A DNA stretch of 64,000 nt from Chloroflexota bacterium (GCA_035652535.1 DASRDP010000082.1:52384-116383); one strand, 5' to 3'; counted from the first letter of the stretch, positions 9,363 through 54,259 are shown. Translations and numbers: made by a program. The notes: generated by a model not told the origin, from the letters alone.

Positions 9363-10040
9363 TCAGCGCGGCTCTCGCAAGACGTAGCCGGCTCCGCGCA
9401 CCGTTTGCAGCAGCCGTTGCTCGCCCTGCCCCTCGAGCTTCGCGCGCAGGTAGCCGACGTAGACGTCGACCACGTTGGTGGGGCGATCGAACTCGGGTCC
9501 CCACACCGCCTGAAGAATGGCCTCGCGCGAGACCACGCGGCGGGGATGGCTCATGAAATAGTGAAGCAGCTCGAACTCGGTCGTCGAAAGGACGATCTCG
9601 CGATCCCCCCGTCGCGCGGTGCGCGAGCTCAGGTCCAGCACGACGTCGGCGAACCGCAACGTCTCCCCGACCGCCACGTCGTGCCGACGAAGCAGCGCAC
9701 GAATGCGCGCCAACAGCTCTTCCAGGGCGAACGGCTTGACCAGGTAGTCGTCCGCGCCGCTGTCGAGACCCCGGACGCGATCAGCCACTTCGTCTTTCGC
9801 CGTCAGGAGGAGCACCGGCGTGTCGCCGCTGCTCCGGAGCTCACGGCAGACCTCGAGCCCATCCATGCCGGGCATGAGAATGTCGAGAACCACGAGGTCC
9901 GGACGACGAGCGCGCGCTTCTTCGAGCCCGGAGGCGCCGGAGCTCGCGGTCTGGACGGCGTATCCTTCGAGGCTGAGAGCCCGCTTCAGAAGCTGGGTGA
10001 TCTTGGGATCGTCGTCGACCACCAGGATATTTGCAGTCAT
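9363..10040 (-). CDS. OmpR-family response regulator
   Basis: 'ILVVDDDPKI...LVVLDILMPGMDGLEV' receiver domain plus winged-helix C-terminus 'YVLREP'. Start set at 'MTANILVVDD'. Confidence 0.85.
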   Translation of the reverse strand: MTANILVVDDDPKITQLLKRALSLEGYAVQTASSGASGLEEARARRPDLVVLDILMPGMDGLEVCRELRSSGDTPVLLLTAKDEVADRVRGLDSGADDYLVKPFALEELLARIRALLRRHDVAVGETLRFADVVLDLSSRTARRGDREIVLSTTEFELLHYFMSHPRRVVSREAILQAVWGPEFDRPTNVVDVYVGYLRAKLEGQGEQRLLQTVRGAGYVLREPR

Positions 10041-10066
10041 TTCACCTCGAAGTATACTTGGTCTCG

Positions 10067-10810
10067 ATGAGCATCTTTGCGAGCTATTTCTGGCTTTGGT
10101 CAATCGTAGGTCTGCTCTGTCTGCTTTTCGTGTCCACGTTGGGCGCAGTTATGAACTTTTTCGGGTTCGTAACGCCGCTTAAGCGCATTGGGCGCTGGGT
10201 TGATGACGCGCCGGCGCTTGTGAAGCTCGCGGTGATCGCGGGGATATTCGGCGTACTCGCCTATCCCTCTGTCGTGCATCGACTGTGGGCGGACGCTACG
10301 GCGGTCGAGACCCGGCACCGGTTTTCCGCACTCCCGGAGTATCCCGACGCGGTCGCTGGGCCGCCCACGGAACAGATGAACGGCCTGTACGATCCAACCG
10401 GAACGGACGGCACCTACATCCTCGGCTGGTACGGGACCGAGCAGTCCTTCGACCAGGTCGAAGCCTTCTACGTGAGCCAGCTCACCCAGCAGGGCTGGAC
10501 CGAGTTCCAACAGTCGGTGACGGGGCGGCGCGTCGCGTCGACAAGGCGCGTGCAATTTCGCGACCAACCGGAGCCGGCCCGCGCCCACTACGAGCTGCTC
10601 GTGACCCAGGTGCCGCCGAATAGCCGCGAAGCGCCGGCATCGCTGGCGGGCAAGCCCACGCTCTTCGCCGTTCGTCTCGGCGTGGTCGATCCACGGGCAA
10701 CGACCCAGGTATCGTGGTTCATCGACTGCCTGGTGCAGCGTGCGCCGACGTTCCCGAGCTGCGAGGCGATGGGCTGGAATCCCATCGAGAAGTTCATCAG
10801 CCCCGAATAG
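10067..10810 (+). CDS. hypothetical membrane-anchored protein
   Basis: N-terminal hydrophobic helices followed by a soluble domain. The first ATG overlaps the RR start, so a downstream ATG was chosen. Confidence 0.5.
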   Translation: MSIFASYFWLWSIVGLLCLLFVSTLGAVMNFFGFVTPLKRIGRWVDDAPALVKLAVIAGIFGVLAYPSVVHRLWADATAVETRHRFSALPEYPDAVAGPPTEQMNGLYDPTGTDGTYILGWYGTEQSFDQVEAFYVSQLTQQGWTEFQQSVTGRRVASTRRVQFRDQPEPARAHYELLVTQVPPNSREAPASLAGKPTLFAVRLGVVDPRATTQVSWFIDCLVQRAPTFPSCEAMGWNPIEKFISPE

Positions 10811-10817: not shown

Positions 10818-11234
10818 TCAGCCGTCGACGGTGATCGGCTCTTCGGAGATGGAGCCCGCATCGTCGATCCAAAATGCGCGCAGGACGGGGCGGTCCGGCT
10901 CCATGAGCGAGCAGATGAAGCACAGCGCGTCGGTACCCCACGTCGCGGTCCACATCGCGACGTCGGTGGGTGACGGATACGCCTGCGTATGTGTATGGGA
11001 GTGGTAGAAGCCGATCAGCTCCATCCCGGCGCTCTCGATGGCCCGAATGGATGAGAAGATGTCCCGCGAGTCCATCTCGAATCGGGTCCGCCGCATCTCC
11101 GCCACGTTGCGGGCACGGTGGACCGACTCCACGCGATTCGTGCGCCCCCCGAGCACGCCGCACACTTCCTCATCGGGCTGCTCCTGCGCATGCCGCGTGA
11201 TGGCGTCGATCTGGGCCTGGCTGAGCTGCACCAT
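10818..11234 (-). CDS. mec: JAMM/MPN+ metalloprotease Mec (CysO-cysteine peptidase)
   Basis: 'EEVCGVLGG' and 'HSHTHTQAYPSPTD' (HxHx7Sx2D) JAMM motifs. Start at 'MVQLSQAQIDAI', 8 nt after the cysM stop. Confidence 0.8.
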   Translation of the reverse strand: MVQLSQAQIDAITRHAQEQPDEEVCGVLGGRTNRVESVHRARNVAEMRRTRFEMDSRDIFSSIRAIESAGMELIGFYHSHTHTQAYPSPTDVAMWTATWGTDALCFICSLMEPDRPVLRAFWIDDAGSISEEPITVDG

Positions 11235-11242
11235 CCACGCCT

Positions 11243-12136
11243 CTACCAGAGGAGCTGCGTACTGAGGTCGACGCTGGCCTGCTCGACGTCCTTGGTCCAG
11301 ACCTGCGTGCTCAAATACTTCCATCCGCTATCGGCGAACAGCACGACCACGTCGCCGCGGTCGAGGCGCTGACCGACCCGGACGGCGCAGGAGAGCGCCG
11401 CGCCCGAGGAGATGCCGGCGAAAATACCCTCTCGCGCCACCAACTCCTTGGTGAATCGAATCCCGCTCTCACTGGAGACGACCATCTTTCGGTCCAGCAT
11501 CGCGAGGTCGAGAATCGGGGGAACGAAGCCCTCGTCGAGATTGCGGAGCCCCTGGACCAGGTCTCCCAGGTTCGGCTCCGCGGCGATCACCTGGATGCGC
11601 TCGTCGTGCTCCTTGAGGCGGCGCGACACGCCCATCAACGTGCCGCCGGTACCGAGGCCCGCCACGAACGCCGTCACGGTCGGAACGGCTTCGAGAATCT
11701 CCGGCGCGGTGGTGTCGTAGTGCGCCAGAGGGTTTGCCGGATTGCCGTACTGGTAAAGCATGACGTATTCGGGCTGGGCCGCCGCCATCCGCTGCGCGAC
11801 CTCGATGGCGCCGTTCGAGCCGCGCGATCCGTCGGTGAGCACCACTTCGGACCCAAACGCCTGAAGAATGTGACGTCGCTCCTCGCTCACGTTCTCGGGC
11901 ATCACCGCGATGAACCGATAGCCGAGGACGCGGCACACCATGGCGAGGGAGATGCCGGTGTTTCCACTGGTGGGCTCAATGAGGGTGGCGCCCGGCTGAA
12001 TCCGCCCCTGGCGCTCTGCCTCTTGCACCATCCGGAGGGCAATGCGGTCTTTCACGCTGCCCGTCGGGTTGTGCCCCTCGAGCTTCGCGAAGATCCGAAC
12101 GCCCTCCTTGGGCGAGAACCGCTTCAGCTCGACCAT
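11243..12136 (-). CDS. cysM: cysteine synthase B-type (PLP-dependent; O-phosphoserine/CysO-thiocarboxylate sulfhydrylase)
   Basis: '[20 protein letters not shown]' PLP-lysine motif and 'GLGTGGTLMG' loop. Confidence 0.9.
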   Translation of the reverse strand: MVELKRFSPKEGVRIFAKLEGHNPTGSVKDRIALRMVQEAERQGRIQPGATLIEPTSGNTGISLAMVCRVLGYRFIAVMPENVSEERRHILQAFGSEVVLTDGSRGSNGAIEVAQRMAAAQPEYVMLYQYGNPANPLAHYDTTAPEILEAVPTVTAFVAGLGTGGTLMGVSRRLKEHDERIQVIAAEPNLGDLVQGLRNLDEGFVPPILDLAMLDRKMVVSSESGIRFTKELVAREGIFAGISSGAALSCAVRVGQRLDRGDVVVLFADSGWKYLSTQVWTKDVEQASVDLSTQLLW

Positions 12137-12196
12137 CGGCGTCCGCCCGATGGTCTCGAGAATGGAGCCGCTGGGTTTCAGAATGATCGGAACCTC

Positions 12197-12475
12197 TCAG
12201 CAGCCGCCCGCGACGGCGGGAAGGATGGCCACCTGATCGCCATCGGCGACCGTCGTATCCAGCCGCTGGAGATAGCGAATGTCCTCGTCGTTGACGTAGA
12301 CGTTGACGAACTGGCGCATCTGGCCCGCTTCGTTGACCAGCTCGCCTTTGATGCCGGGGAACTGACGATCGAGATCGTCGATCACCGCCGCGACGGTCGA
12401 TCCTTGGGACTGCACCACTCGCGCCCCGCCGGTGTGCTTTCGCAGAACCGTGGGAACACGCACTTCCACACTCAT
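12197..12475 (-). CDS. cysO: ThiS/MoaD-family sulfur carrier protein CysO, ending ...AGG-C
   Basis: 92 aa with high similarity to mycobacterial CysO ('VPTVLRKHTGG...FVNVYVNDEDIRYL...DGDQVAILPAVAGGC'). There is one extra Cys after the Gly-Gly. Confidence 0.8.
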   Translation of the reverse strand: MSVEVRVPTVLRKHTGGARVVQSQGSTVAAVIDDLDRQFPGIKGELVNEAGQMRQFVNVYVNDEDIRYLQRLDTTVADGDQVAILPAVAGGC

Positions 12476-12574
12476 TGGCTCGCTCTCCTCACTGCCGGTG
12501 GACTGGCCACCACGGTCGGCGACACGTTTGCATGGCGCTTTCTCGCCGGGCCGCGATTTGGGCGCCCTCCCGGC

Positions 12575-13420
12575 TCAGCTGAGCGCCGATGCCGCGGGGC
12601 CGCCGCAAAATGCCTCGTAATCGATCAGCTCGGTGATGGTTGGCTCGTCGCCGCACACCGGGCAGCTGGGATCGCGCCGGAGCTTCACCTGGCGAAACTC
12701 CATCTCCAGCGAATCGAAGATCAGCATGCGATTCACCAGCGGCTCTCCCTGGCCCAGGATGAGCTTGATCGCCTCCAGCGCCTGGATCGACCCGACGATC
12801 CCCGGCAGAACGCCCAGGACGCCGGCGTCGGCGCAGCTCGGGACCGCGCCCGGTGGCGGAGGCTCCGGAAATACGCACCGATAGCAGCCGCGTCCGGGTA
12901 GGTAGGTCGTCGCCTGGCCTTCGAACCGAAAGATGCTGCCATCGACAAGGGGCTTCTTCAGAAAAACGCACGAGTCATTGACCAGGTACCGAGTCGGGAA
13001 GTTGTCCGAGCCATTGACCACGATGTCGAAGTCACCCATGATGCGAAAGGCATTGTCGGACGTGATGGGCTCGTTGAACGCCGCGATCTTGACATCAGGG
13101 TTGATCTCGCGCAGCGTGTCGGCGGCGGACTCGACCTTTGGCCGTCCCACATCGCTGTGGCCATGAAGCACCTGTCGATGGAGATTCGACAGGTCGACCG
13201 CGTCGAAATCGACGATGCCCAGCGTTCCAACCCCCGCGGCGCCCAGGTACAGCGCGGCTGGCGACCCGAGGCCACCAGCGCCGATCAGCAGGACGCTCGC
13301 CTCGAGCAGCTTGCGCTGGCCAACGCTCCCGACCTCCGGCATGATGATTTGCCGCTGGTAGCGGCGAATCTGGTCCAACGTCAGCGTTCGCGTCCCGGCT
13401 CCATGCAGCTCGACAGCCAT
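12575..13420 (-). CDS. ThiF/MoeB-family E1-like adenylyltransferase (no rhodanese domain)
   Basis: 'LLIGAGGLGSPAALYLGAAGVGTLGIVDFDAVDLSNLHRQ' Rossmann/ATP motif and CxxC...CxxC zinc motif. Only 281 aa. Confidence 0.85.
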   Translation of the reverse strand: MAVELHGAGTRTLTLDQIRRYQRQIIMPEVGSVGQRKLLEASVLLIGAGGLGSPAALYLGAAGVGTLGIVDFDAVDLSNLHRQVLHGHSDVGRPKVESAADTLREINPDVKIAAFNEPITSDNAFRIMGDFDIVVNGSDNFPTRYLVNDSCVFLKKPLVDGSIFRFEGQATTYLPGRGCYRCVFPEPPPPGAVPSCADAGVLGVLPGIVGSIQALEAIKLILGQGEPLVNRMLIFDSLEMEFRQVKLRRDPSCPVCGDEPTITELIDYEAFCGGPAASALS

Positions 13421-13463
13421 CTATTCTGTTCCTTCCTGGCCCAGCGCCAAGTCGCTGGGCCCC

Positions 13464-14489
13464 CTAAAAGTCGACGCTGAGGTACCGCTCGCCGGTGTCC
13501 GGCAGCACGGTCACGACCGTGTGGTTGGGCCCCAGGTCCTGCGCTTCTTGCACCGCCGCGTACACGTTGGCGCCGGCGGAGATTCCGACCAGCAGTCCCT
13601 CTTCTCGCGTCAGGCGGAGCGCCATGTTCATCGCGTCCTGGTCCGTAACGGTCACGATTCGGTCGATGACCGACCGGTCCAACACCCGCGGGATGAAGCT
13701 CGCACCGATGCCCTGAATTCCGTGGGGCCGCGCCCGGCCGCCGCTCAGAAGCGGCGACGACGCGGGCTCGACGGCCACGATCCGCGTCTCCGGCCGTGCC
13801 GCCTTCAGCACCTGGCCCACGCCGCTAATCGTCCCGCCCGTCCCTACGCCCGCCACGAAAGCGTCGATCGGGCCGTCGACGCTGTCCAGGATCTCCCGGG
13901 CGGTGGTGCGACGGTGAACCTCCGGATTCGCGGGATTTTCGAACTGGCGCGGCATGAAGTACTCCGAGTGCTTCCGGCACAGCTCCTCGGCTGCTCGCAC
14001 CGCCCCCGTCATCCCATCCAGGCGAGGAGTCAGGATGAGCTCTGCCCCGTAGCGCATCAGCAATTTTCGGCGCTCTGTGCTCATGTCGTCGGGCATCGTG
14101 AGGATCAGATGGTAGCCCTTCGCCGCCGCCACCATGGCGAGGCCGATCCCGGTGTTGCCACTGGTGGACTCGACGATTGTCGCGCCCGGCTTGAGCTGTC
14201 CCGAATGCTCCGCGTCCTCCACCATCGACAACGCAATGCGATCCTTCACGCTTCCCGCCGGGTTCATCGACTCCAACTTGGCGTAGACCGTCGCGCACTC
14301 AGCCCCCGGGATGCGCCGAAGGCGGACCAACGGAGTGTTGCCGATCAGGTCGAGGACGCTGTCGGCAATGCGCGGCGTCCCGCCCGGTCGGTCCGCATCG
14401 CACCGGTCTGCGCCTTGCTCACCCAGCGGTCGACGCGCTTCCACCACCGTGGGACGCTCCCGCGGTTCCGTTTCGCCGCCCTTCGCCAC
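13464..14489 (-). CDS. cysK: cysteine synthase A (O-acetylserine sulfhydrylase)
   Basis: '[19 protein letters not shown]', '[12 protein letters not shown]' and '[12 protein letters not shown]'. N-terminus may start ~40 codons later. Confidence 0.85.
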
Positions 14490-14512
14490 GTTCGCTCCTG
14501 CTCAATCAGCGG

Positions 14513-14956
14513 CTAAATGTAGTACATATTGCGCGACTCGCGCTCTGCCTGCCGTGCTGCCAGCGACTCGATGGTAATCCCGTGGACCAGCCGCTGGTAG
14601 CTCTCGGCCAGCTCGCACCAGACGTCCTGCAGCACGCACGCGCCGGTGACTGTGCAGGATCCCGTGTCGTCCATACAGGAGCTTGGCGTCGCGATCCCCT
14701 CCAGCACGTCCAGCACGTCCCCCAGCGACAACTCGGCCGGGTCCCTCGCCAGCTCATGCCCCCCTGACGGACCGCGAACGCTCCGAACGAGACCCGCCTT
14801 TCGCAAGGCGGCGAGGAGCTGCTCGAGGTACGACTCGGGGATGTGCTGACGCGCCGCGATTTCAGCGGTCTGGACCAACCCGCCCCCTTGATGCTGAGCG
14901 AGATCGATCATCGCGCGCGCGCCGTAATCGGCGCGCATGGAGATGCGCACAACCAC
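14513..14956 (-). CDS. Rrf2-family transcriptional regulator (CymR/IscR-like) with three Cys
   Basis: 'MRADYGARAMIDLA...LVQTAEIAARQHIPESYLEQLLAALRKAGLVRSVRG' wHTH. Cys triad 'SSCMDDTGSCTVTGAC'. Confidence 0.85.
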   Translation of the reverse strand: MVVRISMRADYGARAMIDLAQHQGGGLVQTAEIAARQHIPESYLEQLLAALRKAGLVRSVRGPSGGHELARDPAELSLGDVLDVLEGIATPSSCMDDTGSCTVTGACVLQDVWCELAESYQRLVHGITIESLAARQAERESRNMYYI

Positions 14957-15020
14957 CCCCGAGAAAGTTGACTATTTTACTCTGAATTATAGAAATCCTG
15001 CTCTCGCACCGTCAATCGGT
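14955..15020 (-). promoter_or_regulatory. sigma70-like promoter (TTGACG-N18-TATAAT on minus strand) inside an AT-rich island upstream of the Rrf2/cys operon
   Basis: The reverse complement of 15009-15014 is TTGACG and of 14985-14990 is TATAAT, 18 nt apart. The surrounding 40 bp is about 25% GC in an otherwise ~70% GC genome. Confidence 0.5.
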
Positions 15021-16191: not shown

Positions 16192-17277
16192 TTAGCGGGG
16201 GTCGAGTCGATAGAAGGACACTGCGCTGTCGACGGCGATGCTGTGCTTCATCTCTTCCGTCAGGTCGGTCCGCTCCCAGAACTCGTCGATCTCGTGGATG
16301 ATGGAAGAATCCGGCTTCTCGTGTGGATAGTCGGAGGGAAAGAGGATACGCCCAGCGGGAAATCGCTGAACGACCAGCGGCAAGGACGCCTCATCGAGCT
16401 CGCAGGAGACGTAGACGTTTCCCCTGGCGATGTAGTCGCTCGGTGCGCGGCGCACGCCGCGGGCTTCAGCCTGCGCACGGTACGCCCCCTCCCACTCGTA
16501 GTCCAGGCGGTCCATCATATACAGCATCCACCCCGACCCCGCTTCGAGAAACGCGACGCGGAGATCGGGAAATCGCTCGAGCGCTCCATCCAGCACAAAG
16601 CTCGTGAGCTGAATGATCTGTGAGACGGGGTGGGAGAGCGCGTGGGTCTTGATCATATTGTCGAAATAATCAAATCCAAGTCCGCGGCTGGGCGCGCCGT
16701 GGACAGCGAGGGCGCACCCCAGCCGCTGCGCCTCGGCGTAGATGGGATCGAACCATTCGTCGCCCAGTGGCCGCCCCACGACGTGGACGGCGGGGAGGAG
16801 CCCTCCCGCGAGGCCAAGCTTGGTGACCGCTCGACGCAGCTCGTCCACAGCGGCTGGGATGTCCTGGACGGGTAGGAGCGCGAGGCTGTGGAAGCGCGGC
16901 GAGGCGCGCACGTACGTGTCGGAAATCCAGTCGTTGTAGGCCTTCGCCAGCACCGTGGCCCACTCGCGATTCTGCACCAATCCGATGGAGAGTCCGCCCG
17001 TGGGGTACAGCACGGTCTCATCCAGGTGGGCTCGATCGAGGAATTCGAGCCATCGCTCCGGGCTCGTCGCGATGGTCTTCCCGCGCCCACCCCCACGCGG
17101 AAATCCGTCGAGAGACGGGAACATCCCGTAGACAGCCGGACCGTCGTACGCCGGAGCGTAGTGACGGATGCGCTCCCTCAGCGCGTCGACGTCCTCATAG
17201 ATGTGCCCGTCGGCATCAATGGCGCGACCCGAGGCGTGCGGCATGGCGGCCCCCAGACGAAATGACTGAGAAAGCAT
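16192..17277 (-). CDS. amidohydrolase-2 family metal-dependent hydrolase (ACMSD-like TIM barrel)
   Basis: 'AIDADGHI' N-terminal metal-binding motif, internal 'HG' and C-terminal 'PSDYPHE'. Confidence 0.8.
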   Translation of the reverse strand: MLSQSFRLGAAMPHASGRAIDADGHIYEDVDALRERIRHYAPAYDGPAVYGMFPSLDGFPRGGGRGKTIATSPERWLEFLDRAHLDETVLYPTGGLSIGLVQNREWATVLAKAYNDWISDTYVRASPRFHSLALLPVQDIPAAVDELRRAVTKLGLAGGLLPAVHVVGRPLGDEWFDPIYAEAQRLGCALAVHGAPSRGLGFDYFDNMIKTHALSHPVSQIIQLTSFVLDGALERFPDLRVAFLEAGSGWMLYMMDRLDYEWEGAYRAQAEARGVRRAPSDYIARGNVYVSCELDEASLPLVVQRFPAGRILFPSDYPHEKPDSSIIHEIDEFWERTDLTEEMKHSIAVDSAVSFYRLDPR

Positions 17278-32418: not shown

Positions 32419-32973
32419 ATGAGAAAAACCACTCTGTACATCCCGGACCTTCTGCACGAGAGCCTGCGCGCCGCTTCTCGGCGGTCGGGTCCGCCCCAGG
32501 CTGAGATCGTCCGCGAGGCGCTCGAGGCCTACCTCGAGGCCAAGGGTCCGCCGGCGCTCGAGTCCCTGGATGCGGAGCGGTACCGAGACATCCCGCTCGG
32601 CTTCGCCGACGCCGCGGTCATCGCGGGCGCCGATCGCCGCGGCGGCGCGGTCCTGACGCTGGACATGCGACACTTCAGCGTCGTGGCGCGCGAGCGGCGA
32701 ATCCGGGTCGTTCCGGGCTGGCGAACGTCACACCGGTGCGTCGACCGCGACGCAGCGCTCCACGAATCGGCGCGCAATGGCCGCGTCGTGGGCGAAGTGG
32801 ACGTGTACGTACGACGCAAGCACGTTGTCGACGGCGTAGCCCTCGAGGCCGCCGCCACGCTCGGCGATTCGATACGCGGCTCGTTCGGGTGGGGCGGGAG
32901 CACCCAGAACCGAGTAGTGAAACTCGTGCCCCGTGACTTCGGCGCCGACCGGCAGCAGGGGGCTCGGGCGTAA
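32419..32973 (+). pseudogene. ribbon-helix-helix (CopG/VapB-like) antitoxin fused in frame to a C-terminal PIN (VapC) fragment. Degenerate TA remnant overlapping the 3' end of cbiA.
   Basis: N-terminal 'TTLYIPDLLHESLRAASRRSG...AEIVREALEAYLE' RHH fold. Then 'FADAAVIAGADRRGGAVLTLDMRHFSVV', a PIN C-terminal block without the N-terminal catalytic acids. The last ~245 nt overlap cbiA on the opposite strand. Confidence 0.45.
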
Positions 32974-34110
32974 CGCAGTGACGGTCCGGTACCCGAGGAC
33001 TGCGCGCCGCCACTGCATGGCCGAGTCGAGTGGAACGATGCCCGCCATGGGGTGCGTCCGTCCATCCAGGTCGACGAGCGACCTCCCCAGATACATCAGG
33101 CCGCCGCATTCACCGTAGATCGGGAGCCCCCGAGCGGCGACGTCGCGAACCGACGCGACCATCGGGGAGTTCGCGGCGAGCTGCGCGGCGTAGAGCTCAG
33201 GGAACCCGCCGCCCAGATATACGCCCCGCGCCGCCGTCGGCACGCGATCGTCCCACAACGGACTGAATGGGATGACCTCAGCGCCCCAGGCCGCGAGCAG
33301 ATCGAGCGCGTCCTCGTAGTAAAAACTGAAGGCCAGGTCTCGCGCGACCGCGATGGCGGTGCGCGGCGCGAGGGGCTCGTCCGGATAGAGCCGCGCGCTG
33401 TTGGCCGCCGCAGGAGCTGGCTCCGGCGCGTCGGCAATCGACCAGACACGGTCGAGGTCGACCGCGCGCGCGGTCGCGGCCGCGAGGCGATCGAAGAACG
33501 CCGGAGCCGGCGATGCTTCCGCAGCCGGGACGAGCCCCAGGTGGCGCTCCGGGATCGACAGATCCGGGTCGCGCGGGAACGCGCCGAGGACCGGAAGTCC
33601 GGTCGCCTGCTGAATCGAGTCGGCCGCCCATCGCGCATGGTCGGCGCTGCCGACGCGGTTGAGAATGAATCCGGCCACCTTGAGATCCGGATCGAAGGCA
33701 ACGCACCCGAGGGCGAGGGCTCCCGCGGTTCGCGACGTCTTCGCCGCGTCGATGACCACGACGACCGGCGCATCGATGAGCTTCGCGATCTGGGCCGTCG
33801 AGCCGGCCTCGCCCTGCCCGCCCCGGCCGTCGAAGAGCCCCATGACTCCCTCGACGATGGCGATATCGGCCGACCGCGCGGCTCGCTTGTAGATAGCGCG
33901 CAGGTTCATGTGGGGCACGAGCACGCTATCGAGCGTACGGGATGGGACGCCGGCGGCAGCGGTGTGGTGGCTCGGATCGATGTAGTCCGGGCCCGCCTTG
34001 AAAGGTTGGACGTGAAGGCCGCGCTGGCGATAGGCGGAGATCAGGCCACACACGACGGTCGTTTTGCCAACGCCGCTCGATGTGCCCGCGATGACGAGTC
34101 TCCGAGTCAT
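32728..34110 (-). CDS. cbiA: cobyrinate a,c-diamide synthase
   Basis: 'VIAGTSSGVGKTTVVCGLI' P-loop and C-terminal glutamine amidotransferase 'GECGGLMYLG'. Confidence 0.9.
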   Translation of the reverse strand: MTRRLVIAGTSSGVGKTTVVCGLISAYRQRGLHVQPFKAGPDYIDPSHHTAAAGVPSRTLDSVLVPHMNLRAIYKRAARSADIAIVEGVMGLFDGRGGQGEAGSTAQIAKLIDAPVVVVIDAAKTSRTAGALALGCVAFDPDLKVAGFILNRVGSADHARWAADSIQQATGLPVLGAFPRDPDLSIPERHLGLVPAAEASPAPAFFDRLAAATARAVDLDRVWSIADAPEPAPAAANSARLYPDEPLAPRTAIAVARDLAFSFYYEDALDLLAAWGAEVIPFSPLWDDRVPTAARGVYLGGGFPELYAAQLAANSPMVASVRDVAARGLPIYGECGGLMYLGRSLVDLDGRTHPMAGIVPLDSAMQWRRAVLGYRTVTALRPSPLLPVGAEVTGHEFHYSVLGAPAPPERAAYRIAERGGGLEGYAVDNVLASYVHVHFAHDAAIARRFVERCVAVDAPV

Positions 34111-35984
34111 GAAATCGCATACCCGCGGCGCGTGGTGAGCCGGCTGCCCGCGCGAACCGTGGCGCTGTTTCCGACGATGACGATGGTGAGCATGTCGATC
34201 GGACGATCGAGGAGGTGGGCCAGGTCTGTAACCTCGATTTGCTGATCCCGACGCGCGGCGTTGCGAACCAGGCCCACGGGTGTGCCCGGGTCCCGATGGC
34301 GCAGGAGAATCGCGTGCGCACGCTCGAGGGGCGCCCGGCGCCGTCGGCTGGCCGGGTTGTACAGCGCGATGACCATGTCGCTGGCCGCCGCGGCCTCGAG
34401 GCGACGCTCGATGACGGCGAGTGGGGTCATGAGGTCGCTGAGACTGATGGTCGCGAAGTCGCTCATGAGGGGCGCCCCCAAAAGCGCGGCAGCCGTGCTC
34501 GCCGCCGACACGCCCGGCACGATCTCTAGCCGCTCCAGCTCGTCATCGGCCCCATCCGCCGCCAGCAGCTCGATCACGATGCCGGCTGTCCCATACACGC
34601 CCGGATCGCCGCTGGAGACCAGCGCCACCCGCCGCCCATCGCGAGCCAGCGCGACGGCGAGGCGGCAGCGCTCGATCTCGGCGCCGATCGGGCTCCCGTG
34701 ATAGGTGGCGTCCGGAAGCCACGGGCGAATGAGATCGAGGTATCCGTCGTACCCGACGACCGCCTCGGCCGATTCGAGGGTTCGGCGCGCGCGCTCGGTC
34801 ATCTCGGATTCGGCCCCGGGCCCGATTCCGACAACGCTCAGCGCCCCGTTTCGAGTGCTGGCGCGGACCCGCGCGACGGCGACCGTCACGCGCGGTGTTC
34901 GTGTTTTGGCGGCGACCAGCTCGGCGCCGGGGCCAGCCGCGAGAAGAGCTGCCGGCTCGCAGACGGCCGGAGCGCCCACCGCTTCCGCCACGACAGCGGA
35001 GACGCCTGACGGCGCGGGAGCCGCGGCCAGCTCGGCGGGCTCGAAAAATCGGAGCGGCCGGCCGCGCCGCTCGGCGGCCTCCCGAATCCCGCGCTCCTCG
35101 CGCTTGGCGGCGATCGTCGCGATCTCGCGTACGCTGTTCACCGCGAGACGATGGCCCGCCAGAGTCGAACCGATCAGGTCGAGGATCTCCTCAGCGGTGG
35201 CGCCGCGAACGCAGCCGACGCCCACCGAGAGCGTCCTCGGTCGAAAGACGAGCGCGGGGCCGTCGCCCTCGAGCGGATGAATCCGATCGCTGATGATCAG
35301 TCGCGCCGAGAGCCGGGCGCCGTTCAGGGCCTCCACGCTGGCGTACCGGACGATGTTTCTCGGCGCCTCGCGCCACCACGCCTCGTCTCCCGCGTCCTGG
35401 TAGCAGCCGACCGGCTCGCCGTCGATGACCGCGGCGCTGGCTCGTGTCATGCCGCCGTCGTCTTCCAGCGTCCACCCCCAACGCCCGGCCATCAGGTCAA
35501 GCGCGATGGAGCCGAGGGCCTCAGCGGCCGTCGTGATGACAGGGCGCGCGCCGATCGCCGCGGCCACCCGTCGGGCGAGGTCGTTCGCGCCGCCCAGGTG
35601 CTCGGAGAGCACCGGCACGACGTGGGCTCCCGCCTCGTCTATGGCGATCACGGCTGGATCCTGGCGCTTGTCGACGAGCAGCGGCGCGACGAGCCGCACG
35701 ACTGCGCCGACGGGGAGGACGCACACGAGCGCACGGTCCGCGGCGAACTCCTCCGCGACGGCTTCGCGAATGCCGCCTTCCGGGAAAGCGGTCGTCGGCG
35801 GCTGGTCGCTTGCCCCCGGCTCAGATAGGGCCCCGGGCGCTCGGACATCCCCGCCCAGGCATCTCTGGAGCCGACGAGCGATCTCCAGCCCGCGTCGGCT
35901 GACGGCGAAGATCGCCGGCCCCGGGCGGACGTTCGGCGCCCCTGGGACGCCGGCTGCGTCAGGCCCCATGACGATCGTCGCCAT
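34107..35984 (-). CDS. cbiGH: CbiG-CbiH fusion (cobalt-precorrin-5A hydrolase + cobalt-precorrin-3B C17-methyltransferase)
   Basis: N-terminal 'PAIFAVSRRGLEIARRL' CbiG block. C-terminal 'LSVVGIGPGAESEMTERA...LVSSGDPGVYG' tetrapyrrole methylase block. Confidence 0.8.
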   Translation of the reverse strand: MATIVMGPDAAGVPGAPNVRPGPAIFAVSRRGLEIARRLQRCLGGDVRAPGALSEPGASDQPPTTAFPEGGIREAVAEEFAADRALVCVLPVGAVVRLVAPLLVDKRQDPAVIAIDEAGAHVVPVLSEHLGGANDLARRVAAAIGARPVITTAAEALGSIALDLMAGRWGWTLEDDGGMTRASAAVIDGEPVGCYQDAGDEAWWREAPRNIVRYASVEALNGARLSARLIISDRIHPLEGDGPALVFRPRTLSVGVGCVRGATAEEILDLIGSTLAGHRLAVNSVREIATIAAKREERGIREAAERRGRPLRFFEPAELAAAPAPSGVSAVVAEAVGAPAVCEPAALLAAGPGAELVAAKTRTPRVTVAVARVRASTRNGALSVVGIGPGAESEMTERARRTLESAEAVVGYDGYLDLIRPWLPDATYHGSPIGAEIERCRLAVALARDGRRVALVSSGDPGVYGTAGIVIELLAADGADDELERLEIVPGVSAASTAAALLGAPLMSDFATISLSDLMTPLAVIERRLEAAAASDMVIALYNPASRRRRAPLERAHAILLRHRDPGTPVGLVRNAARRDQQIEVTDLAHLLDRPIDMLTIVIVGNSATVRAGSRLTTRRGYAIS

Positions 35985-36807
35985 TGCTGGCGTCGGCGGC
36001 ACGCGGAGCCGCGGCCTGACTGCGCTGACGCCGCCTGGCCTGGCGAAACAGATGCGTGTAGTCCCCGGCGTAGAGACGGGACCGGCGCCCGTCCGCCGCG
36101 TCTGAGTCCAGGGCCGGACCAATGAGAATCAGGGCCTGACGCGTCCACTTGGCTGCGCGGACCTTCGCACGGATGTCCTTCAACGTGCCCCGGACTATCT
36201 CCTCGTCCGGCCAGCTCACCCGGTACACCGCGGCGACGGGCGTCTCGGGCGGATAACCTCCGGCGAGAAGCTCCCGAACGACACGGTAGATGTGGGCGAT
36301 GCTGAGAAAGAGCACGAGGCTCGTACCATGGGCCGCCAGGCTCCGCAGCGACTCACCGGGAGGGACGGGGCTCGCTCTTCCGGAGATGCGCGTCAGGATC
36401 ACGCTCTGCGCAACGCTTGGAACGGTCAGCTCCACTCCGAGGGCGGCCGCCGCCGCGAATGCGGAGCTGACGCCCGGCACGATGGTCCACGGGACGCCGG
36501 CCGCGTCGAGCCGCGCGATCTGCTCATGGAGCGCTCCATAGATGGCCGGGTCGCCGCTCTGCAGCCTCGCGACCGTCTGCCCCTCCCGAGCGGCCGCGAT
36601 CATCCGGTCCGACATCTCCTCCAGCGTCAAGCCCGAGCTACCGATCACCGTCGCGCCGGGGCGAGCCACCTCGCACACGCGGGGATCGACGAGCGAGTCT
36701 GCGAAGACGACGAGGTCGGCCTGGCGAACGAGCGACTGTCCGCGCACCGTCATGAGGTCGGGAGCGCCGGGTCCTGCCCCGATGAAATAGACGTGGCCGA
36801 GGTTCAC
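35959..36807 (-). CDS. cbiF: cobalt-precorrin-4 C11-methyltransferase
   Basis: 'VYFIGAGPGAPDLMTVRGQ...LQSGDPAIYGA'. GTG start chosen. Confidence 0.85.
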   Translation of the reverse strand: MNLGHVYFIGAGPGAPDLMTVRGQSLVRQADLVVFADSLVDPRVCEVARPGATVIGSSGLTLEEMSDRMIAAAREGQTVARLQSGDPAIYGALHEQIARLDAAGVPWTIVPGVSSAFAAAAALGVELTVPSVAQSVILTRISGRASPVPPGESLRSLAAHGTSLVLFLSIAHIYRVVRELLAGGYPPETPVAAVYRVSWPDEEIVRGTLKDIRAKVRAAKWTRQALILIGPALDSDAADGRRSRLYAGDYTHLFRQARRRQRSQAAAPRAADASNGDDRHGA

Positions 36808-36814
36808 CGGATCC

Positions 36815-37537
36815 TCACCGGACGCGCCGAACGACGAGCGTCGAGAAATAGTCGAGGCGCTGACCCCGAAGCTGTTCCACATCTCGGACGACGCGCTCGT
36901 CTGCGCAGCCGCAGCGCGAAACCAACACAGCCGCGTGGGAGTCGCCGAGCGCCGCGAGCGCGTCGAGCACCCGATCGAAGCGTCCCGCGACCTTGAGCAG
37001 GACGACCGTATCGAATTGGCGCAAGGTGTCTTGCAGGGCGCCGTCGTCGTACAGGGCGGGAAGAATCGCGATGCGCTCCTCCCCGTCGGCGAGCGGAACC
37101 CCCGCCGCCGCGGCGGCCGCGTTCACCGACGAAACGCCGGGGACGACGCGAATCGGCGCACCGGGCAACTCCGCGGCGAGGGCGGACGAGACGTGCATGA
37201 ACGTGCTGTACAACGTCGGGTCGCCCTCGGTCACGAAAGCTGCGTCGCGCCCGACCAGTAGCTCACGCGCGATGAGCCGCGCGTTCTCGCGCCAGCGTTG
37301 AACCTGGGCCGGGCGCTCTCCCCGCATGGCAAAGAGCAGCTCCACGACCCGCTGGCGTTCGAGGTCGAGATGAGGTCGGATGGTGGCAGCGGCGAAGCTC
37401 TTCGCGCCCTCGCGGGCGATCGGGACGAAGACCGTCCGGACGCGCTGCAACACCCGCAGCCCCTTGAGGGTGATGAGCTCCGGATCCCCCGGGCCGATGC
37501 CAATCCCGTACAGGGTGCCAAGCGGCTCCTGGCTCAC
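36815..37537 (-). CDS. cbiL: cobalt-precorrin-2 C20-methyltransferase
   Basis: 'LYGIGIGPGDPELITLKG...VTEGDPTLYST'. GTG start overlaps the cbiET stop as GTGA. The Arg-rich N-terminus of the track ORF is discarded. Confidence 0.8.
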   Translation of the reverse strand: MSQEPLGTLYGIGIGPGDPELITLKGLRVLQRVRTVFVPIAREGAKSFAAATIRPHLDLERQRVVELLFAMRGERPAQVQRWRENARLIARELLVGRDAAFVTEGDPTLYSTFMHVSSALAAELPGAPIRVVPGVSSVNAAAAAAGVPLADGEERIAILPALYDDGALQDTLRQFDTVVLLKVAGRFDRVLDALAALGDSHAAVLVSRCGCADERVVRDVEQLRGQRLDYFSTLVVRRVR

Positions 37538-38814
37538 CGCGCGGCCCCCTCCGCCACGCGTTGAAGCGTGACCACGAAAACGGGATTGCGGGCCTCCAGG
37601 CGGGTGATGCCGGCCGTCACGGTCGAGCGCGCGACGCTGACCTCGACGATCTCGGCGTCCCAGCCGTGGGCGGCGGCCCATCGACGGGCCTGCTCCAAGT
37701 GCTCGAGGGCGACCAGGTTGGCGACGACGCGTCCGCCCGCGGCGAGCGCCAGGGCGACGGCGTCCAGGATCGCCTCCAATCGGCCCCCGCTGCCGCCGAC
37801 GAACACGGAATCCGGTCGCGGCAGCGCCCCCAAGGCCGCGGGCGCCTCCCCGTGAACCATCGCGACGTTTCCGGCTCCGAAGCGCCGGCGGTTCTGTTCG
37901 AGAAGCGCGAGTTGCTCCCCGTCCCGCTCGACGGCGTATACGTGGCCGTGGGGAAGGAGCGCCGCTGCCACGATGGACACGGAGCCGCAGCCTGCTCCCA
38001 CGTCCCACAGCGTGGCGCGCTCGTGGAGGACCAGTTTCGAGAGGGAGATGGCGCGCACCTCTGGCTTGCTGATGAGCCCACCCCGGTGGAGAAAGCGGTC
38101 CTCATGGATCCCGATGGGCCACGGCGGCGGAGTCGCCTCGCGCCGCAGCACCATGAGGTTGAGCGGCGCGAACTGCTGCCCGCGGATCTCGCTCAGCAGG
38201 CCGCAGACATGCCGCTCAAGCGGCCCGCCCAGATGCTCGAACACGTCAACCCGCACGTCCGCGTCTCCGGCCGCGAGCAGCGCTTCCGCGATGGCGGAAG
38301 GTGAATTTCGGGAATCCGTGAAGACGATCGCCGTGCGCGCGCGGAGGGCCCGCGGCAGGATCGCGTCGAGCGGCCGCCCGTGGGCGCTCAGCAGCGCGGC
38401 GTCTTCCCACGCGATCCCGAGCCGGGCGCATGCGAGCTGCGCGGCGCCGACGTTCGGCAGGATGCGCACGCGGTAGCGGCCGAGGCGCTCGGCCAACAGG
38501 GGGCCGATGCCGAAACAGTCGGGATCGCCCGACGCGAGTACCACCGTCGGGCGCGACTCGCCGCGAAGGCGTTCGACCACCTCGTCGATATTTGCCTTGA
38601 GCACGATTCGCTCGTCTCCGCAATCGGGGAAGAAGGCGAGGTGTCGCTCGCCACCCACGAGGACCGACGCTCGCTCGACGAGCGCCCTCGCCTCGGCGGT
38701 CAGGCTCGCGGCCCCCGCATCGGTGACCCCGACGACGCAGATGGTGGCGAGCGCCGGGTCGTGGACGGACGGCGCCGTTGCGCTCGCCGATCGTCGCCGC
38801 GACGCGTCAGCCAT
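37534..38814 (-). CDS. cbiET: cobalt-precorrin-6Y C5,15-methyltransferase (decarboxylating), CbiE-CbiT fusion
   Basis: CbiE half 'ICVVGVTDAGAASL...LASGDPDCFG' and CbiT half 'LWDVGAGCGSVSI' SAM motif. Confidence 0.8.
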   Translation of the reverse strand: MADASRRRSASATAPSVHDPALATICVVGVTDAGAASLTAEARALVERASVLVGGERHLAFFPDCGDERIVLKANIDEVVERLRGESRPTVVLASGDPDCFGIGPLLAERLGRYRVRILPNVGAAQLACARLGIAWEDAALLSAHGRPLDAILPRALRARTAIVFTDSRNSPSAIAEALLAAGDADVRVDVFEHLGGPLERHVCGLLSEIRGQQFAPLNLMVLRREATPPPWPIGIHEDRFLHRGGLISKPEVRAISLSKLVLHERATLWDVGAGCGSVSIVAAALLPHGHVYAVERDGEQLALLEQNRRRFGAGNVAMVHGEAPAALGALPRPDSVFVGGSGGRLEAILDAVALALAAGGRVVANLVALEHLEQARRWAAAHGWDAEIVEVSVARSTVTAGITRLEARNPVFVVTLQRVAEGAAR

Positions 38815-39895
38815 CGACCGACCTCGTGGCGGCGGTTGTGGACGCCCGTCCCAGCTCGTGGCCGTCGAAGTCAAACATGATGGCTTCCACATCGAGGGAC
38901 CGCTTCACGTGCGCCGAGCACTGATCGACGACGCACCGGGCGATCTCGCGAAAGAGCGAATCGGGCCCCTTCTCCTGCGCCAGCTCCTGCACGTGCCGAG
39001 CGGTATTCGCGGACCGGATCTGTCGAGCGAGATCCTCGCTTGCGCCGCAGCGCGCGGCAAGCTGGGAGAGGAAGGCGATGTCCACCTGGTTTCCCGCGAC
39101 GTGCGTCTGGAGGTGCCCCTGCGCGAGCTTGGAGAATTTCCCGATCATGCCGGCGAGGGTCACAGCTCGGACTCCGCGCTCCGCGCACCGCCTGAGGGCG
39201 CGGCCCGTGAAGATGCCCATCTCCACGAAGGCCACCTCGGGAAGCGGGATGCGCGCCATGGCGAATTTCTCGCTGCGGCCGCCGGTCGTGAGGACCACGT
39301 GGGTCTGCCCATTGGCCGCCGCGACGTCGATCGCCTCCTCGACGCTCGCCCGCCACGCGGCCGTCGACCAGGGGTGCACGATCCCGGTGGTCCCCAGGAT
39401 AGAGATGCCGCCCACGATCCCAAGACGCCCGTTCAACGTTTTCTTCGCAAGCTCGGCGCCACGAGGCACGCGAATCTCGACGTCGAGCCCGCGATCTGCG
39501 AGGAGGTCGCCCGCGGCCTCGGCCACCGCCTCGCGGATCATTCGGCGCGGAACGGGGTTGATGGCGGGCCCGCCCACTTCGATGCCGAGCCCCCGGAGGG
39601 TCACCACCCCGACGCCCTCCCCACCGCGCAGGGTGATTCCCGGACCAGCGCCCCAGCCGACAGCGGCACAGATCTCCGCCCCGTGGGTCACATCGGGATC
39701 ATCGCCGGCGTCCTTGATCACGGAGCACATCGCCGACCGCTCCTCAACCGCACAGGCGTGAATCGCGAACGTCGCGTCCACGCCCACCGGGAGGTGGATC
39801 GTTACGGAATCGACCGGCTGCTGAGCGATCAGGGCTTGGGTGGCCGCCTTGGCGGCCGCGGCGGCGCAGGCACCCGTCGTGAAACCGGTGCGCAT
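38807..39895 (-). CDS. cbiD: cobalt-precorrin-5B C1-methyltransferase
   Basis: 'MRTGFTTGACAAAAAKAA' canonical CbiD N-terminus. Confidence 0.85.
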   Translation of the reverse strand: MRTGFTTGACAAAAAKAATQALIAQQPVDSVTIHLPVGVDATFAIHACAVEERSAMCSVIKDAGDDPDVTHGAEICAAVGWGAGPGITLRGGEGVGVVTLRGLGIEVGGPAINPVPRRMIREAVAEAAGDLLADRGLDVEIRVPRGAELAKKTLNGRLGIVGGISILGTTGIVHPWSTAAWRASVEEAIDVAAANGQTHVVLTTGGRSEKFAMARIPLPEVAFVEMGIFTGRALRRCAERGVRAVTLAGMIGKFSKLAQGHLQTHVAGNQVDIAFLSQLAARCGASEDLARQIRSANTARHVQELAQEKGPDSLFREIARCVVDQCSAHVKRSLDVEAIMFDFDGHELGRASTTAATRSVDG

Positions 39896-40012
39896 CCCGC
39901 GCCGTCGCACGCTGACCCTGCCCCGCGCCTGCGACACGTCCGATGCCGTCACCGCGTAGGCCCCACGAGCCCACGTGTTGGGCGCCGTTTCGGTCGACCT
40001 TCCACGCGATCC

Positions 40013-40678
40013 TCACTCCTCATCATGGAAAATCGCTCGGCGGAGCAGCTCGTTGACCAAGGTGGCGGCGAGCGCTGCGCCGCCACGCTCCCCTTCGATA
40101 GTAATGAACGGCACCGGACGACTGACCAGCTCCGCCTTCGCCTCGGCCGCGGCCACGAAGCCGACGGGTGTCCCGACGATGAGCGCAGGTCTGACCGCGC
40201 CGGCGTCCACCAGATCGAGGACCGCCAGAAGGGCGGTGGGCGCGGTGCCGACCGAGACGACGCCCCCGTTCATCGACGCGGCGAGCGTGCGCATGGCGAC
40301 GACGGCCCGGGGAAGCCCCAGTGCATGCGCCTTACGAGTGACCGATTCCCGATCGATGGCGCACGCGACACGACAGCCCAGGCGCCGGAGCGAGCCGCGA
40401 TCGAGGGCAACCTCCAACATCCGGACGTCGACGACGATCGGGCAGCCGGCGCGGAGCGCGGCGATGCCCCCGGCGATGGCTTCGGGGTGCACGCGGACGC
40501 GCTCGGCGAGAGCGGGGTCACCGCTCGCGTAGACGACGCGACGAATGATCGCGCGCTCTGCCGGCGGCCACCGACTCAAGTCCCCGATCACGGCGTCCAC
40601 CCGCTGCAGGCTCAGCGCCTCGATCTCCTCGGGCGCCCTCGCGTGACGTTCCACCAGGGTCCGGGGGTCGCGGTCCAT
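40013..40678 (-). CDS. cbiC: cobalt-precorrin-8 methylmutase
   Basis: 'RVVYASGDPALAERVRVHPEAIAGGIAALRAGCPIVVDVRM' CbiC/CobH core. Start at the first internal ATG. Confidence 0.8.
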   Translation of the reverse strand: MDRDPRTLVERHARAPEEIEALSLQRVDAVIGDLSRWPPAERAIIRRVVYASGDPALAERVRVHPEAIAGGIAALRAGCPIVVDVRMLEVALDRGSLRRLGCRVACAIDRESVTRKAHALGLPRAVVAMRTLAASMNGGVVSVGTAPTALLAVLDLVDAGAVRPALIVGTPVGFVAAAEAKAELVSRPVPFITIEGERGGAALAATLVNELLRRAIFHDEE

Positions 40679-43290: not shown

Positions 43291-43367
43291 CGCGGCAATG
43301 CGCCTCGTACAATTTCATCGAGCGGCCAATCTTCCCCGGAGCTGCGGGCGCACGGGCCGGAGGCGAG

Positions 43368-43793
43368 GTGAAAAGCGAGGCGAGGACCGGCGCCGACGTT
43401 CGCCTCCCCATCGTTTTCTTCGACGGCGAATGCGGCCTCTGCAACGGGACCGTCGACGTGCTGCTGGCCGTGGACAGGCGCGCGGTGCTGCACTTTGCCC
43501 CGCTCCAGGGCGTGACCGCCCGGGAGCTGCTTCCGCCTCTTCCGCCCGACGAAGCGACCTGGTCCATCGTATACCTGGACGAGCGCGGCGCCTTTGAGCG
43601 CGCAGATGCCGTCATCGAGATCTGCCGGCGGCTTGGGGGCGTTTTCGCCCTCGCCGTCGTCGGGCGTGCGCTGCCTGTGCCCCTGCGCGACGGCATCTAC
43701 CGTGCTATCGCCCGAGGCCGGTACCGCCTCTTCGGCCGCCGCGCAACCTGCCGAGCGCCGAGCGAGCGCGAGCACGCTCGCTTTCTGGAGTGA
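43368..43793 (+). CDS. DCC-family thiol-disulfide oxidoreductase (DUF393)
   Basis: 'PIVFFDGECGLCNGTVD' DCC motif. GTG start with GGAGG 6 nt upstream. The track shows this only as the tail of a longer out-of-frame ORF. Confidence 0.6.
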   Translation: MKSEARTGADVRLPIVFFDGECGLCNGTVDVLLAVDRRAVLHFAPLQGVTARELLPPLPPDEATWSIVYLDERGAFERADAVIEICRRLGGVFALAVVGRALPVPLRDGIYRAIARGRYRLFGRRATCRAPSEREHARFLE

Positions 43794-43819
43794 GCGGCAC
43801 GCGCCCCCGCCGAGGGCAG

Positions 43820-44245: not shown

Positions 44246-44319
44246 CTGGGTGAAAGATCAATGATTGCGAAACCATAGCAGAAAATTAAGAAAACGATAA
44301 GAAGGGGCGTATGCAAATA

Positions 44320-45413: not shown

Positions 45414-45426
45414 GCCCGCCGGCCCG

Positions 45427-54187: not shown

Positions 54188-54259
54188 CGGTCGGAAACGG
54201 GAACGGGCCCGCCGTCTCCTCGTCAACGTTACGATCCGCATCCGCAGAGAAGCGCGGGA

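Follow-up and report, generated by a model that had tools for sequence, protein, structure and literature searches.

A Chloroflexota cysteine operon predicted to encode its CysO sulfur carrier as a Gly-Gly-Cys pro-protein

Introduction

How might a sulfur carrier protein that works through a C-terminal Gly-Gly be used when its gene encodes one residue more? This question is raised by an operon in a 64,000-nucleotide stretch of DNA from a soil Chloroflexota bacterium (GCA_035652535.1, DASRDP010000082.1:52384-116383), called the window below, in which positions are counted from the first letter. Six close-set genes on the minus strand, between about 15015 and 10818, encode an Rrf2-family regulator, CysK, an E1 enzyme, the carrier CysO, CysM, and a Mec-like JAMM protease. 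The pathway type is already known. In Mycobacterium tuberculosis, an E1 thiocarboxylates CysO, CysM uses O-phosphoserine to generate a CysO-cysteine adduct, and Mec hydrolyses this adduct (PMC3227635, PMC8280819).

We propose, with a probability of roughly 0.8, that this Chloroflexota operon serves a route of cysteine synthesis that depends on a protein thiocarboxylate, with CysO made as a Gly-Gly-Cys pro-protein and matured by Mec. As part of the same reading, the operon would bundle the thiocarboxylate route with the cysK sulfide route and an E1 of its own, all under a regulator that probably senses iron-sulfur (Fe-S) clusters. Most of these elements had been named in an earlier reading made from the sequence alone (here, the sequence-only reading). 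Homology and motif analyses support that reading element by element, with cleavage by the JAMM protein itself as the predicted step; the stated order of the six genes was borne out by Pfam and NCBIfam assignments. Its description of the locus as complete was too strong, because the 64 kb contain no sulfur donor and cysM has no canonical start codon.

The CysO carrier and its terminal cysteine

The cysO gene (12197..12475, minus strand) encodes a sulfur-carrier precursor of 92 amino acids that matches PF02597 with an expect value (E) of 7e-19. Among solved chains it lies closest to M. tuberculosis CysO (3DWG_C, E 2.5e-26), with the alignment running up to the end of the ILPAVAGG motif; the second solved match is Amycolatopsis CysO (4N6E_B), while SAMP1 structures reach only E ~5e-3. 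The window's cysM product likewise has an M. tuberculosis protein as its best solved relative (E 1e-96, detailed below), so that the alignment with CysO and CysM suggested by the sequence-only reading came out as expected for both. In the Chloroflexota carrier, the ILPAVAGG motif is followed by one further residue, Cys92, giving the C-terminus ILPAVAGGC. At the codon level, the AVAGGC end claimed earlier is read from GGC (12208-12206), GGC (12205-12203), TGC (12202-12200), and the TGA stop (12199-12197).

A terminal codon of this kind could be created by a sequencing error, as the sequence-only reading had cautioned. For the Cys codon and the junction, an error in sequencing or assembly is excluded by an identical sequence in an ENA contig (0 mismatches in 6894 bases) and in an independent Logan assembly (0 in 2581 bases), and by the recurrence of Gly-Gly-Cys among many relatives. 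The window and many related loci link the carrier gene to a cysM of the M. tuberculosis type and to a gene for a JAMM hydrolase, in the order cysO-cysM-mec.

The JAMM protease and the proposed cycle

The mec-like gene (10818..11234, minus strand) encodes a JAMM/MPN+ metalloprotease of 138 amino acids, a length that the ENA gene call shares, and matches PF14464 (Prok-JAB) with E 5e-22. The residues of the JAMM zinc site are E23, within EVCG (11168-11166), and the series H78-S-H80-x7-S88-x2-D91 (11003-10962). Solved relatives include 2KKS (E 3e-14) and PfJAMM1 (5LD9/5LDA), and the motif aligns in both. A careful alignment that looked for missing catalytic motifs found the E-x-x-G and HxHx7Sx2D motifs intact, as had been claimed for this protein. 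The claim that cysO lies adjacent to the JAMM gene did not hold, as cysM separates the two.

From the published M. tuberculosis pathway and the gene linkage, we infer that Mec cleaves the CysO-Gly-Gly-Cys bond. In the cycle that we propose, CysO would be translated as the one-residue pro-protein CysO-Gly-Gly-Cys, and the JAMM protease (Mec) would cut after Gly-Gly, exposing the carboxylate. The rhodanese-less E1 would then adenylate the trimmed CysO, sulfur from a donor encoded outside the window would convert the adenylate to a thiocarboxylate, and CysM would couple this thiocarboxylate to the aminoacrylate derived from O-phosphoserine, forming CysO-Gly-Gly-Cys anew. Lastly, Mec would release cysteine and thereby restore CysO.

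As a peptide, the Gly-Gly-Cys precursor is identical to the CysO-cysteine adduct, the substrate that Mec hydrolyses in M. tuberculosis, and so maturation would need no new activity or specificity. Put another way, the encoded precursor is chemically the last intermediate of the pathway, such that maturation and product release would be one reaction. Moreover, since Mec would be obligatory in the pathway, extensions after Gly-Gly would be tolerated at no cost, and this tolerance would explain why a tail, or a fusion to CysM or E1, is found in most members of the family.

Tails and fusions across the CysO family

The frequency of such extensions was assessed in two samples, comprising the 120 closest CysO clusters and 150 sequences, each representing a cluster at 50% identity, from a set of 1.84 billion proteins. 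Among the closest clusters, 19 have a free Gly-Gly, and 101 have a tail after it; the ends include Gly-Gly-Cys (27 clusters), Gly-Gly-Ser (9), and Gly-Gly-Arg (7), with the remainder carrying other tails of up to 50 residues. The Gly-Gly motif was found in 138 of the 150 representatives, free in 33 and tailed in 105, and in 13 of the tailed proteins the tail exceeds 60 residues, which makes them fusions. A tail after Gly-Gly is the rule in the CysO family, not an oddity.

Cysteine is prominent in the first position of these tails. It occupies that position in 29 of the 101 tailed close clusters, while the residue after Gly-Gly in the 105 tailed representatives is Ala in 36, Ser in 17, Cys in 11, and Arg in 8. 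This excess of Cys is large because the background is only 0.9% of residues in the window's proteins (binomial p ~4e-35 for 29/101 and 4e-9 for 11/105, with shared ancestry ignored). In a neighbor-joining tree of CysO, Gly-Gly-Cys forms fall into at least four separate groups, interleaved with free Gly-Gly, Gly-Gly-Ser, and Gly-Gly-Arg forms. The same end occurs in actinobacterial loci of the M. tuberculosis type (ClpS-DUF2017-x-JAB-CysO-CysM), one such cluster having 295 member sequences. Six Gly-Gly-Cys junctions could be read at the nucleotide level (the window, L087, L161, L168/L169, L170, and L171/L172), and in all of them TGC is followed immediately by a stop codon, which is TAG in L087 and TGA in the other five. 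Selection for an optimal Mec substrate may account for the prominence of Cys.

Longer extensions join the carrier to its partner enzymes. Single-chain CysO-CysM fusions of ~400 to 420 amino acids make up 26 of the 120 best matches to a CysO+CysM query, and their junctions read AVAGG-A followed by a linker of 10 to 30 residues (P0001, P0002, P0046, P0064, and others). In both fusion loci examined, a JAB gene lies immediately 3' of the fusion (L164, 412-1662; L165, 2250-3515). A large metagenomic clade has the arrangement CysM-JAB-CysO, with CysO fused via Gly-Gly to an E1 of ~400 amino acids and an Rrf2 gene often following (L105, L109, L116, L118, L120, L121, and L125-L160). Most of the proteins that a CysO scan of metagenomes brought up were distantly related (≤65% identity), and the close Gly-Gly-Cys group was reached via individual protein look-ups. 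In scans of the neighborhood of each locus, several loci with a tailed CysO have no JAMM gene within 6 kb.

Many loci from Dehalococcoidia have the order Rrf2-E1-CysM, with no CysO detected between the latter two genes and a JAMM gene likewise missing within 6 kb (L013, L015, L017-L019, L021, L023-L027, L032, L033, L040-L045, L056, L062, L066, L067, L069-L076, L078, and L080). The carrier of these bacteria is either encoded elsewhere or too divergent for tblastn.

The operon, its E1, and its regulator

In operon order, and excepting the cysO-cysM junction, the gaps between genes are 23, 43, 99, and 8 nucleotides. A promoter-like site (TTGACG-18 nt-TATAAT; 14986..15015, minus strand) lies 5' of the Rrf2 gene and agrees with 11 of 12 consensus positions, being a consensus match only. 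From this site through to the last codon of the JAMM gene, no terminator-like site was found, leaving no sign of an internal split. Together, these features are consistent with a single operon, while not proving one. The order Rrf2-cysK-E1-cysO-cysM-JAB is conserved across many Chloroflexota genomes. NCBI assigns proteins identical to the window's to a metagenome-assembled genome of Chloroflexota. Two close relatives, L162 and L165, also share the flanks of the window's locus, namely an opposite-strand hypothetical protein, a response regulator, and a histidine kinase. On the plus strand, at 10031..10810 and divergent from the JAMM gene, is a gene for a predicted membrane protein of 259 amino acids with no Pfam match, and the same protein is encoded at this position in L162, L165, and L166.

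The E1 (12575..13420, minus strand; 281 amino acids) is a MoeB/ThiF-type adenylyltransferase that matches PF00899 over residues 21 to 255 (E 3e-86), and its best solved relative is Escherichia coli MoeB (1JW9, E 5e-60). It has a GAGGLG nucleotide loop at residue 47 and ends ~25 residues past the ThiF domain, scoring 369 bits against a cutoff of 647 for the MoeZ model. The sequence-only reading had described a short ThiF/MoeB form with a single zinc CxxC pair and no rhodanese domain. The lack of a rhodanese domain stands, and the zinc site has four cysteines, contributed by two pairs (C179YRC and C253PVC). Related operons also encode a rhodanese-less E1, in which there is no room for such a domain because cysO follows at once.

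Where, then, would the sulfur come from? A Pfam survey of the ~58 predicted proteins in the 64 kb found no rhodanese, cysteine desulfurase, SufS/IscS, serine acetyltransferase, or sulfate-reduction genes. Because of this result and the rhodanese-less E1, the earlier suggestion that sulfur must be delivered from elsewhere stands. Sulfur might be supplied by a stand-alone carrier of persulfide, or free sulfide might attack the acyl-adenylate.

The two genes at the head of the operon encode a second cysteine synthase and a regulator. The product of cysK (13464..14489, minus strand) is an O-acetylserine sulfhydrylase A, as evidenced by a score of 438 bits against the cutoff of 351 for the TIGR01139 equivalog; its true start may be downstream of GTG 14489. 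With M. tuberculosis CysM as the best match for cysM, the operon does contain cysK and cysM together, as had been noticed. The Rrf2-family regulator (14513..14956, minus strand; PF02082, E 5e-37) could start at GTG 14956, GTG 14950, or ATG 14938. The three cysteines reported for it were located as C94-x6-C101-x5-C107, a motif conserved in most of the operon-linked orthologues, and the protein scores under the equivalog cutoffs for CymR and IscR. On the basis of this motif, the regulator is a probable Fe-S sensor.

In many related operons, a second, divergent ThiS-like gene lies between cysK and the E1 gene, often overlapping the E1 start (L003-L011, L016, L020, L031, L044, L048, L081, L082, L088, and L090). 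No such gene is present in the window, where the gap is 43 nucleotides, nor in its two nearest genome relatives, L001 and L002.

The cysO-UGA-cysM junction

The cysM gene (11243..12187, minus strand; PF00291) is in frame with cysO and is predicted to encode a cysteine synthase of the M. tuberculosis type, which uses CysO thiocarboxylate and O-phosphoserine. Its product scores 327 bits (E 1e-96) against solved M. tuberculosis CysM (3DWG_A/3DKI_A) and 252 bits (E 5e-74) against CysM of Salmonella and E. coli. The alignment to the M. tuberculosis protein spans GS-ILETIGRTP to the last residues, while the enteric proteins end ~15 residues short. Also conserved is the LRN(L/M)DEGF stretch with the position of M. 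tuberculosis Arg220. Among NCBIfam models, the cysKM subfamily was passed (349 versus 344 bits), and the enteric cysM equivalog failed (302 versus 394). In M. tuberculosis, CysO and CysM have been crystallized as a complex (3DWG).

The start of cysM, which the sequence-only reading passed over, is unusual. After the cysO TGA, the same frame continues with GAG GTT CCG ATC ATT CTG AAA CCC AGC GGC TCC and then with ATT CTC GAG ACC ATC GGG CGG ACG CCG ATG, reading EVPIILKPSGS-ILETIGRTP-M. ILETIGRTP is the conserved N-terminal motif of the CysM family, and the canonical open reading frame (12136..11243, minus strand), which begins at ATG 12136, truncates it. Candidate starts are ATC 12187, ATT 12184, CTG 12181, ATT 12163, and ATG 12136, of which the NCBI pipeline chose ATT 12163 (P0003, 306 amino acids). 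A full N-terminus could be obtained only via the near-cognate ATC, ATT, or CTG codons or by read-through. A Shine-Dalgarno-like GAGAGG (12193..12198, minus strand), which overlaps the cysO stop, lies 5, 8, and 11 nucleotides before ATC 12187, ATT 12184, and CTG 12181, respectively, and the JAMM gene has a Shine-Dalgarno-like site of like geometry (AGAGG, 5 nucleotides, ATG). ATG 12136 has no Shine-Dalgarno sequence and is enclosed by an 8-bp hairpin (ACCATCGG...CCGATGGT; 12132..12154, minus strand; -12.6 kcal/mol), the stem of which is partly dictated by the conserved I-G and P-M codons. CysM most likely arises by near-cognate initiation, or by reinitiation after termination, at ATC 12187 or ATT 12184.

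Relative L161 offers a view of a related junction. Its cysO also ends in GGC TGC TGA, and a GGAGG and an ATG then follow in another frame. Compared with L161, the window lacks ~38 nucleotides between the cysO stop and cysM, including that GGAGG and ATG, and the second Met is ATT in the window.

Two special explanations of the TGA were considered and rejected. Selenocysteine insertion or another recoding event is excluded, given that the window has no tRNA gene, that no Rfam match was found in 10000-16500 at E up to 1, and that the folding energy of the wider junction region, including the sequence downstream, is ordinary (z = -0.43). Reassignment of the codon is also excluded, as TGA ends 25 of the 40 well-supported genes in the window.

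Weighing the alternatives

Several observations weigh against the pro-protein reading, and some of them would fit a different use of the carrier. The 64 kb include no rhodanese, cysteine desulfurase, or sulfate-reduction gene, and hence no donor can be placed. The p-values for Cys enrichment are uncorrected for shared ancestry, and the prominence of Cys could be the product of a mutational route, with GGC-TGA becoming GGC-TGC-TGA by duplication of one triplet. Annotation points elsewhere as well. The carrier narrowly passes the NCBIfam SAMP1 equivalog (64.4 versus a cutoff of 60 bits) and is named "ubiquitin-like small modifier protein 1" by NCBI, the only NCBIfam match of the JAMM protein is desampylase (95 versus a cutoff of 130), and the E1 resembles UbaA (349 bits) and is rhodanese-less like UbaA. 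The carrier, E1, and JAMM protein might, then, constitute a ubiquitin-like conjugation system akin to archaeal SAMP/UbaA/HvJAMM1 or Thermus TtuB, in addition to or instead of a cysteine pathway, with the Cys capping the carrier against premature conjugation. Yet the UbaA and desampylase scores are both well under their cutoffs (450 and 130, respectively), the carrier is far closer to M. tuberculosis CysO than to the SAMP1 structures, no E2- or E3-like gene is present, and cysO is located between the E1 gene and an M. tuberculosis-type cysM, with cysK in the operon, in an arrangement conserved in many genomes. This alternative appears very unlikely to us. Because the SAMP1 model is passed so narrowly and the scores for its companions, UbaA and desampylase, fall short, we regard the carrier's name as an over-annotation, while a side role in conjugation is possible.

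The remaining difficulty for the pro-protein reading is the start of cysM, since no ATG, GTG, or TTG occurs between the cysO TGA and ILETIGRTP, and without a canonical start cysM may be poorly expressed or decaying. A canonical start is present at or upstream of the motif in each of the 94 related loci, making the window the sole exception among 95. The missing start also bears on two further explanations. According to one, the in-frame UGA is read through in part, yielding a CysO-CysM polyprotein that Mec cuts after Gly-Gly; this is how a CysM with its full N-terminus would be made, and the locus would be a snapshot of gene fusion or fission. The frame itself is suggestive, for cysM follows directly after the TGA, the in-frame EVPIILKPSGS resembles EHDPILKPQGS, a translated N-terminal extension of CysM in P0005/L161, and the independent assemblies reproduce the junction. 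Furthermore, syntenic sister loci with 74 to 75% identity encode true fusions of 416 and 421 amino acids with a JAB gene downstream. An in-frame arrangement is nevertheless expected by chance one time in three, TGA is the commonest ordinary stop of the window, neither an unusual RNA structure nor an Rfam match marks the site, and the spacing of GAGAGG before ATC, ATT, and CTG favors ordinary, weak near-cognate initiation or termination-reinitiation. A G after the UGA does not make for a particularly leaky context, which also counts against read-through. We consider this explanation improbable. A broader proposal, that the UGA is a functional leaky or coupled junction at which either read-through or reinitiation at AUC/AUU fixes the CysO:CysM ratio, with Mec processing the polyprotein, is speculative and on balance unlikely. 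According to the other explanation, which we likewise hold to be improbable, a deletion took the ribosome-binding site and ATG of cysM, leaving only a truncated and probably inactive product from ATG 12136; the organism would rely on cysK, and CysO, E1, and Mec would be on their way out or serve another purpose. The absence of ~38 nucleotides relative to L161 fits such a deletion, and the second Met, which many relatives use as the start (MLExIGxTP), is ATT in the window. A decaying gene is hard to reconcile with the remaining 297 or more codons of cysM, which are intact, with a third-position G+C content (GC3) of 0.86, 84% identity to relatives, and no frameshift or internal stop. In addition, in-frame codons further upstream have kept the N-terminal motif of the family, the Shine-Dalgarno-like element precedes near-cognate starts, and an ATT start is accepted by the NCBI pipeline (P0003).

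Comparison with known systems

The window's system most resembles mec-cysO-cysM of M. tuberculosis (Rv1334-Rv1336, with the E1 MoeZR), in that both have a ThiS/MoaD-fold carrier with ILPAVAGG, a JAMM hydrolase, and a CysM that carries the C-terminal tail. They would also share their chemistry, in which the thiocarboxylate and O-phosphoserine give CysO-Cys for Mec to hydrolyse. The two differ in gene order, the window having E1-cysO-cysM-mec, and in the E1, which is in the operon and rhodanese-less in the window, whereas MoeZR has a rhodanese domain and is unlinked. Here cysK and Rrf2 are co-operonic, where M. tuberculosis has ClpS/AosR as neighbors. In addition, the window's CysO carries an extra C-terminal Cys in place of a free Gly-Gly, and its cysM, unlike that of M. 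tuberculosis, has no canonical start.

Carriers that must be cut after Gly-Gly are familiar from other pathways. Fused MoaD-MoaE proteins and the precursors of eukaryotic ubiquitin and ubiquitin-like proteins (Ubls) are likewise beta-grasp proteins with a C-terminal extension, active only once cut exactly after Gly-Gly. Human polyubiquitin-B also ends in a single extra Cys. These proteins belong to other pathways, molybdopterin synthesis or protein tagging, and in the window a single stop codon stands between the carrier and CysM. For MoaX, the MoaD-MoaE fusion of M. tuberculosis, a cut after Gly82 is needed (PMC4326299), and DRJAMM cleaves the MoaD-MoaE of Deinococcus (PMC8832034).

The nearest precedents for trimming come from secondary metabolism. 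QbsE, which ends in Gly-Gly-Cys-Phe, and CxnE, which has 10 residues after Gly-Gly, are encoded with the JAMM proteins QbsD and CxnF, respectively, and trimming by the clustered protease before adenylation has been proposed or shown (PMC5925218). These thioquinolobactin and chuangxinmycin systems are similar to the window's in having a carrier with residues past Gly-Gly and a JAMM gene in the cluster. They differ in inserting sulfur into secondary metabolites and in using MoeZ-type E1s that contain rhodanese domains, whereas the tail in the window is a single Cys, identical to the product adduct of the pathway, and is encoded in an operon of primary metabolism.

The operon type, too, has been described. 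Iyer, Burroughs and Aravind (2006) catalogued a type 4c comprising ThiS/MoaD, E1, JAB, and cysteine synthase genes, with Chloroflexus included, and predicted that JAB proteins free the C-termini of fused carriers (PMC1779556). The window shares the four core gene families with this type, in which the E1 is fused to a rhodanese domain. The catalogue does not describe cysK, Rrf2, the Gly-Gly-Cys tail, or CysO-CysM and CysO-E1 fusions. In the literature searched, we found no description of a Gly-Gly-Cys CysO or a CysO-CysM fusion, which is not proof that none exists.

Other features of the window

Several features elsewhere in the window were also recorded. A cobalamin-biosynthesis cluster (32728..40888) encodes a CobQ/CobB-type amidotransferase, a CbiG-methylase fusion, a further tetrapyrrole methylase, and CbiC. 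It is followed by a zinc-uptake set (41570..45843) with an ABC ATPase, an ABC-3 permease, and a ZnuA binding protein, along with a Fur-family regulator on the opposite strand. The lowest G+C content of the window, 0.613 versus ~0.67, is found at 54001..56000, a segment that may be foreign DNA and that holds a gene for a DUF6978 protein (55087..55515). Three paralogous pairs are present, belonging to Amidohydro_2 (16192..17277 and 56531..57616), SBP_bac_5 (47333..49387 and 51343..53268), and MFS_3 (49898..51325 and 60845..62191).

Implications

The locus represents a modest variation, and it does not overturn current understanding: trimming of carrier tails by JAMM proteins and the operon type are already published, and Gly-Gly-Cys recurs commonly in relatives. 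What the variation would add is economy. If Mec both matures CysO and frees cysteine, then the operon encodes a miniature ubiquitin-like cycle, with a capped pro-protein and one JAMM protease for both jobs.

Across the family, capped or fused carriers are the majority state, and a free Gly-Gly occurs in only 19 of the 120 close clusters and 33 of the 138 diverse representatives. This has practical consequences for annotation, in which many such carriers are labelled MoaD or SAMP1, and for reconstitution in vitro, which would require removal of the tail first. The start-less, in-frame cysM offers a concrete case for how adjacent genes fuse or split, and if the junction is indeed leaky or coupled, then the window captures an intermediate of fusion or fission. 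Taken together with the abundant fusions and near-universal tails, such a junction would imply that Mec serves a bacterial family of pro-Ubls as its general maturase. The prevalence of capped or fused carriers also bears on evolutionary accounts of how JAMM processing specific for Gly-Gly preceded eukaryotic ubiquitin.

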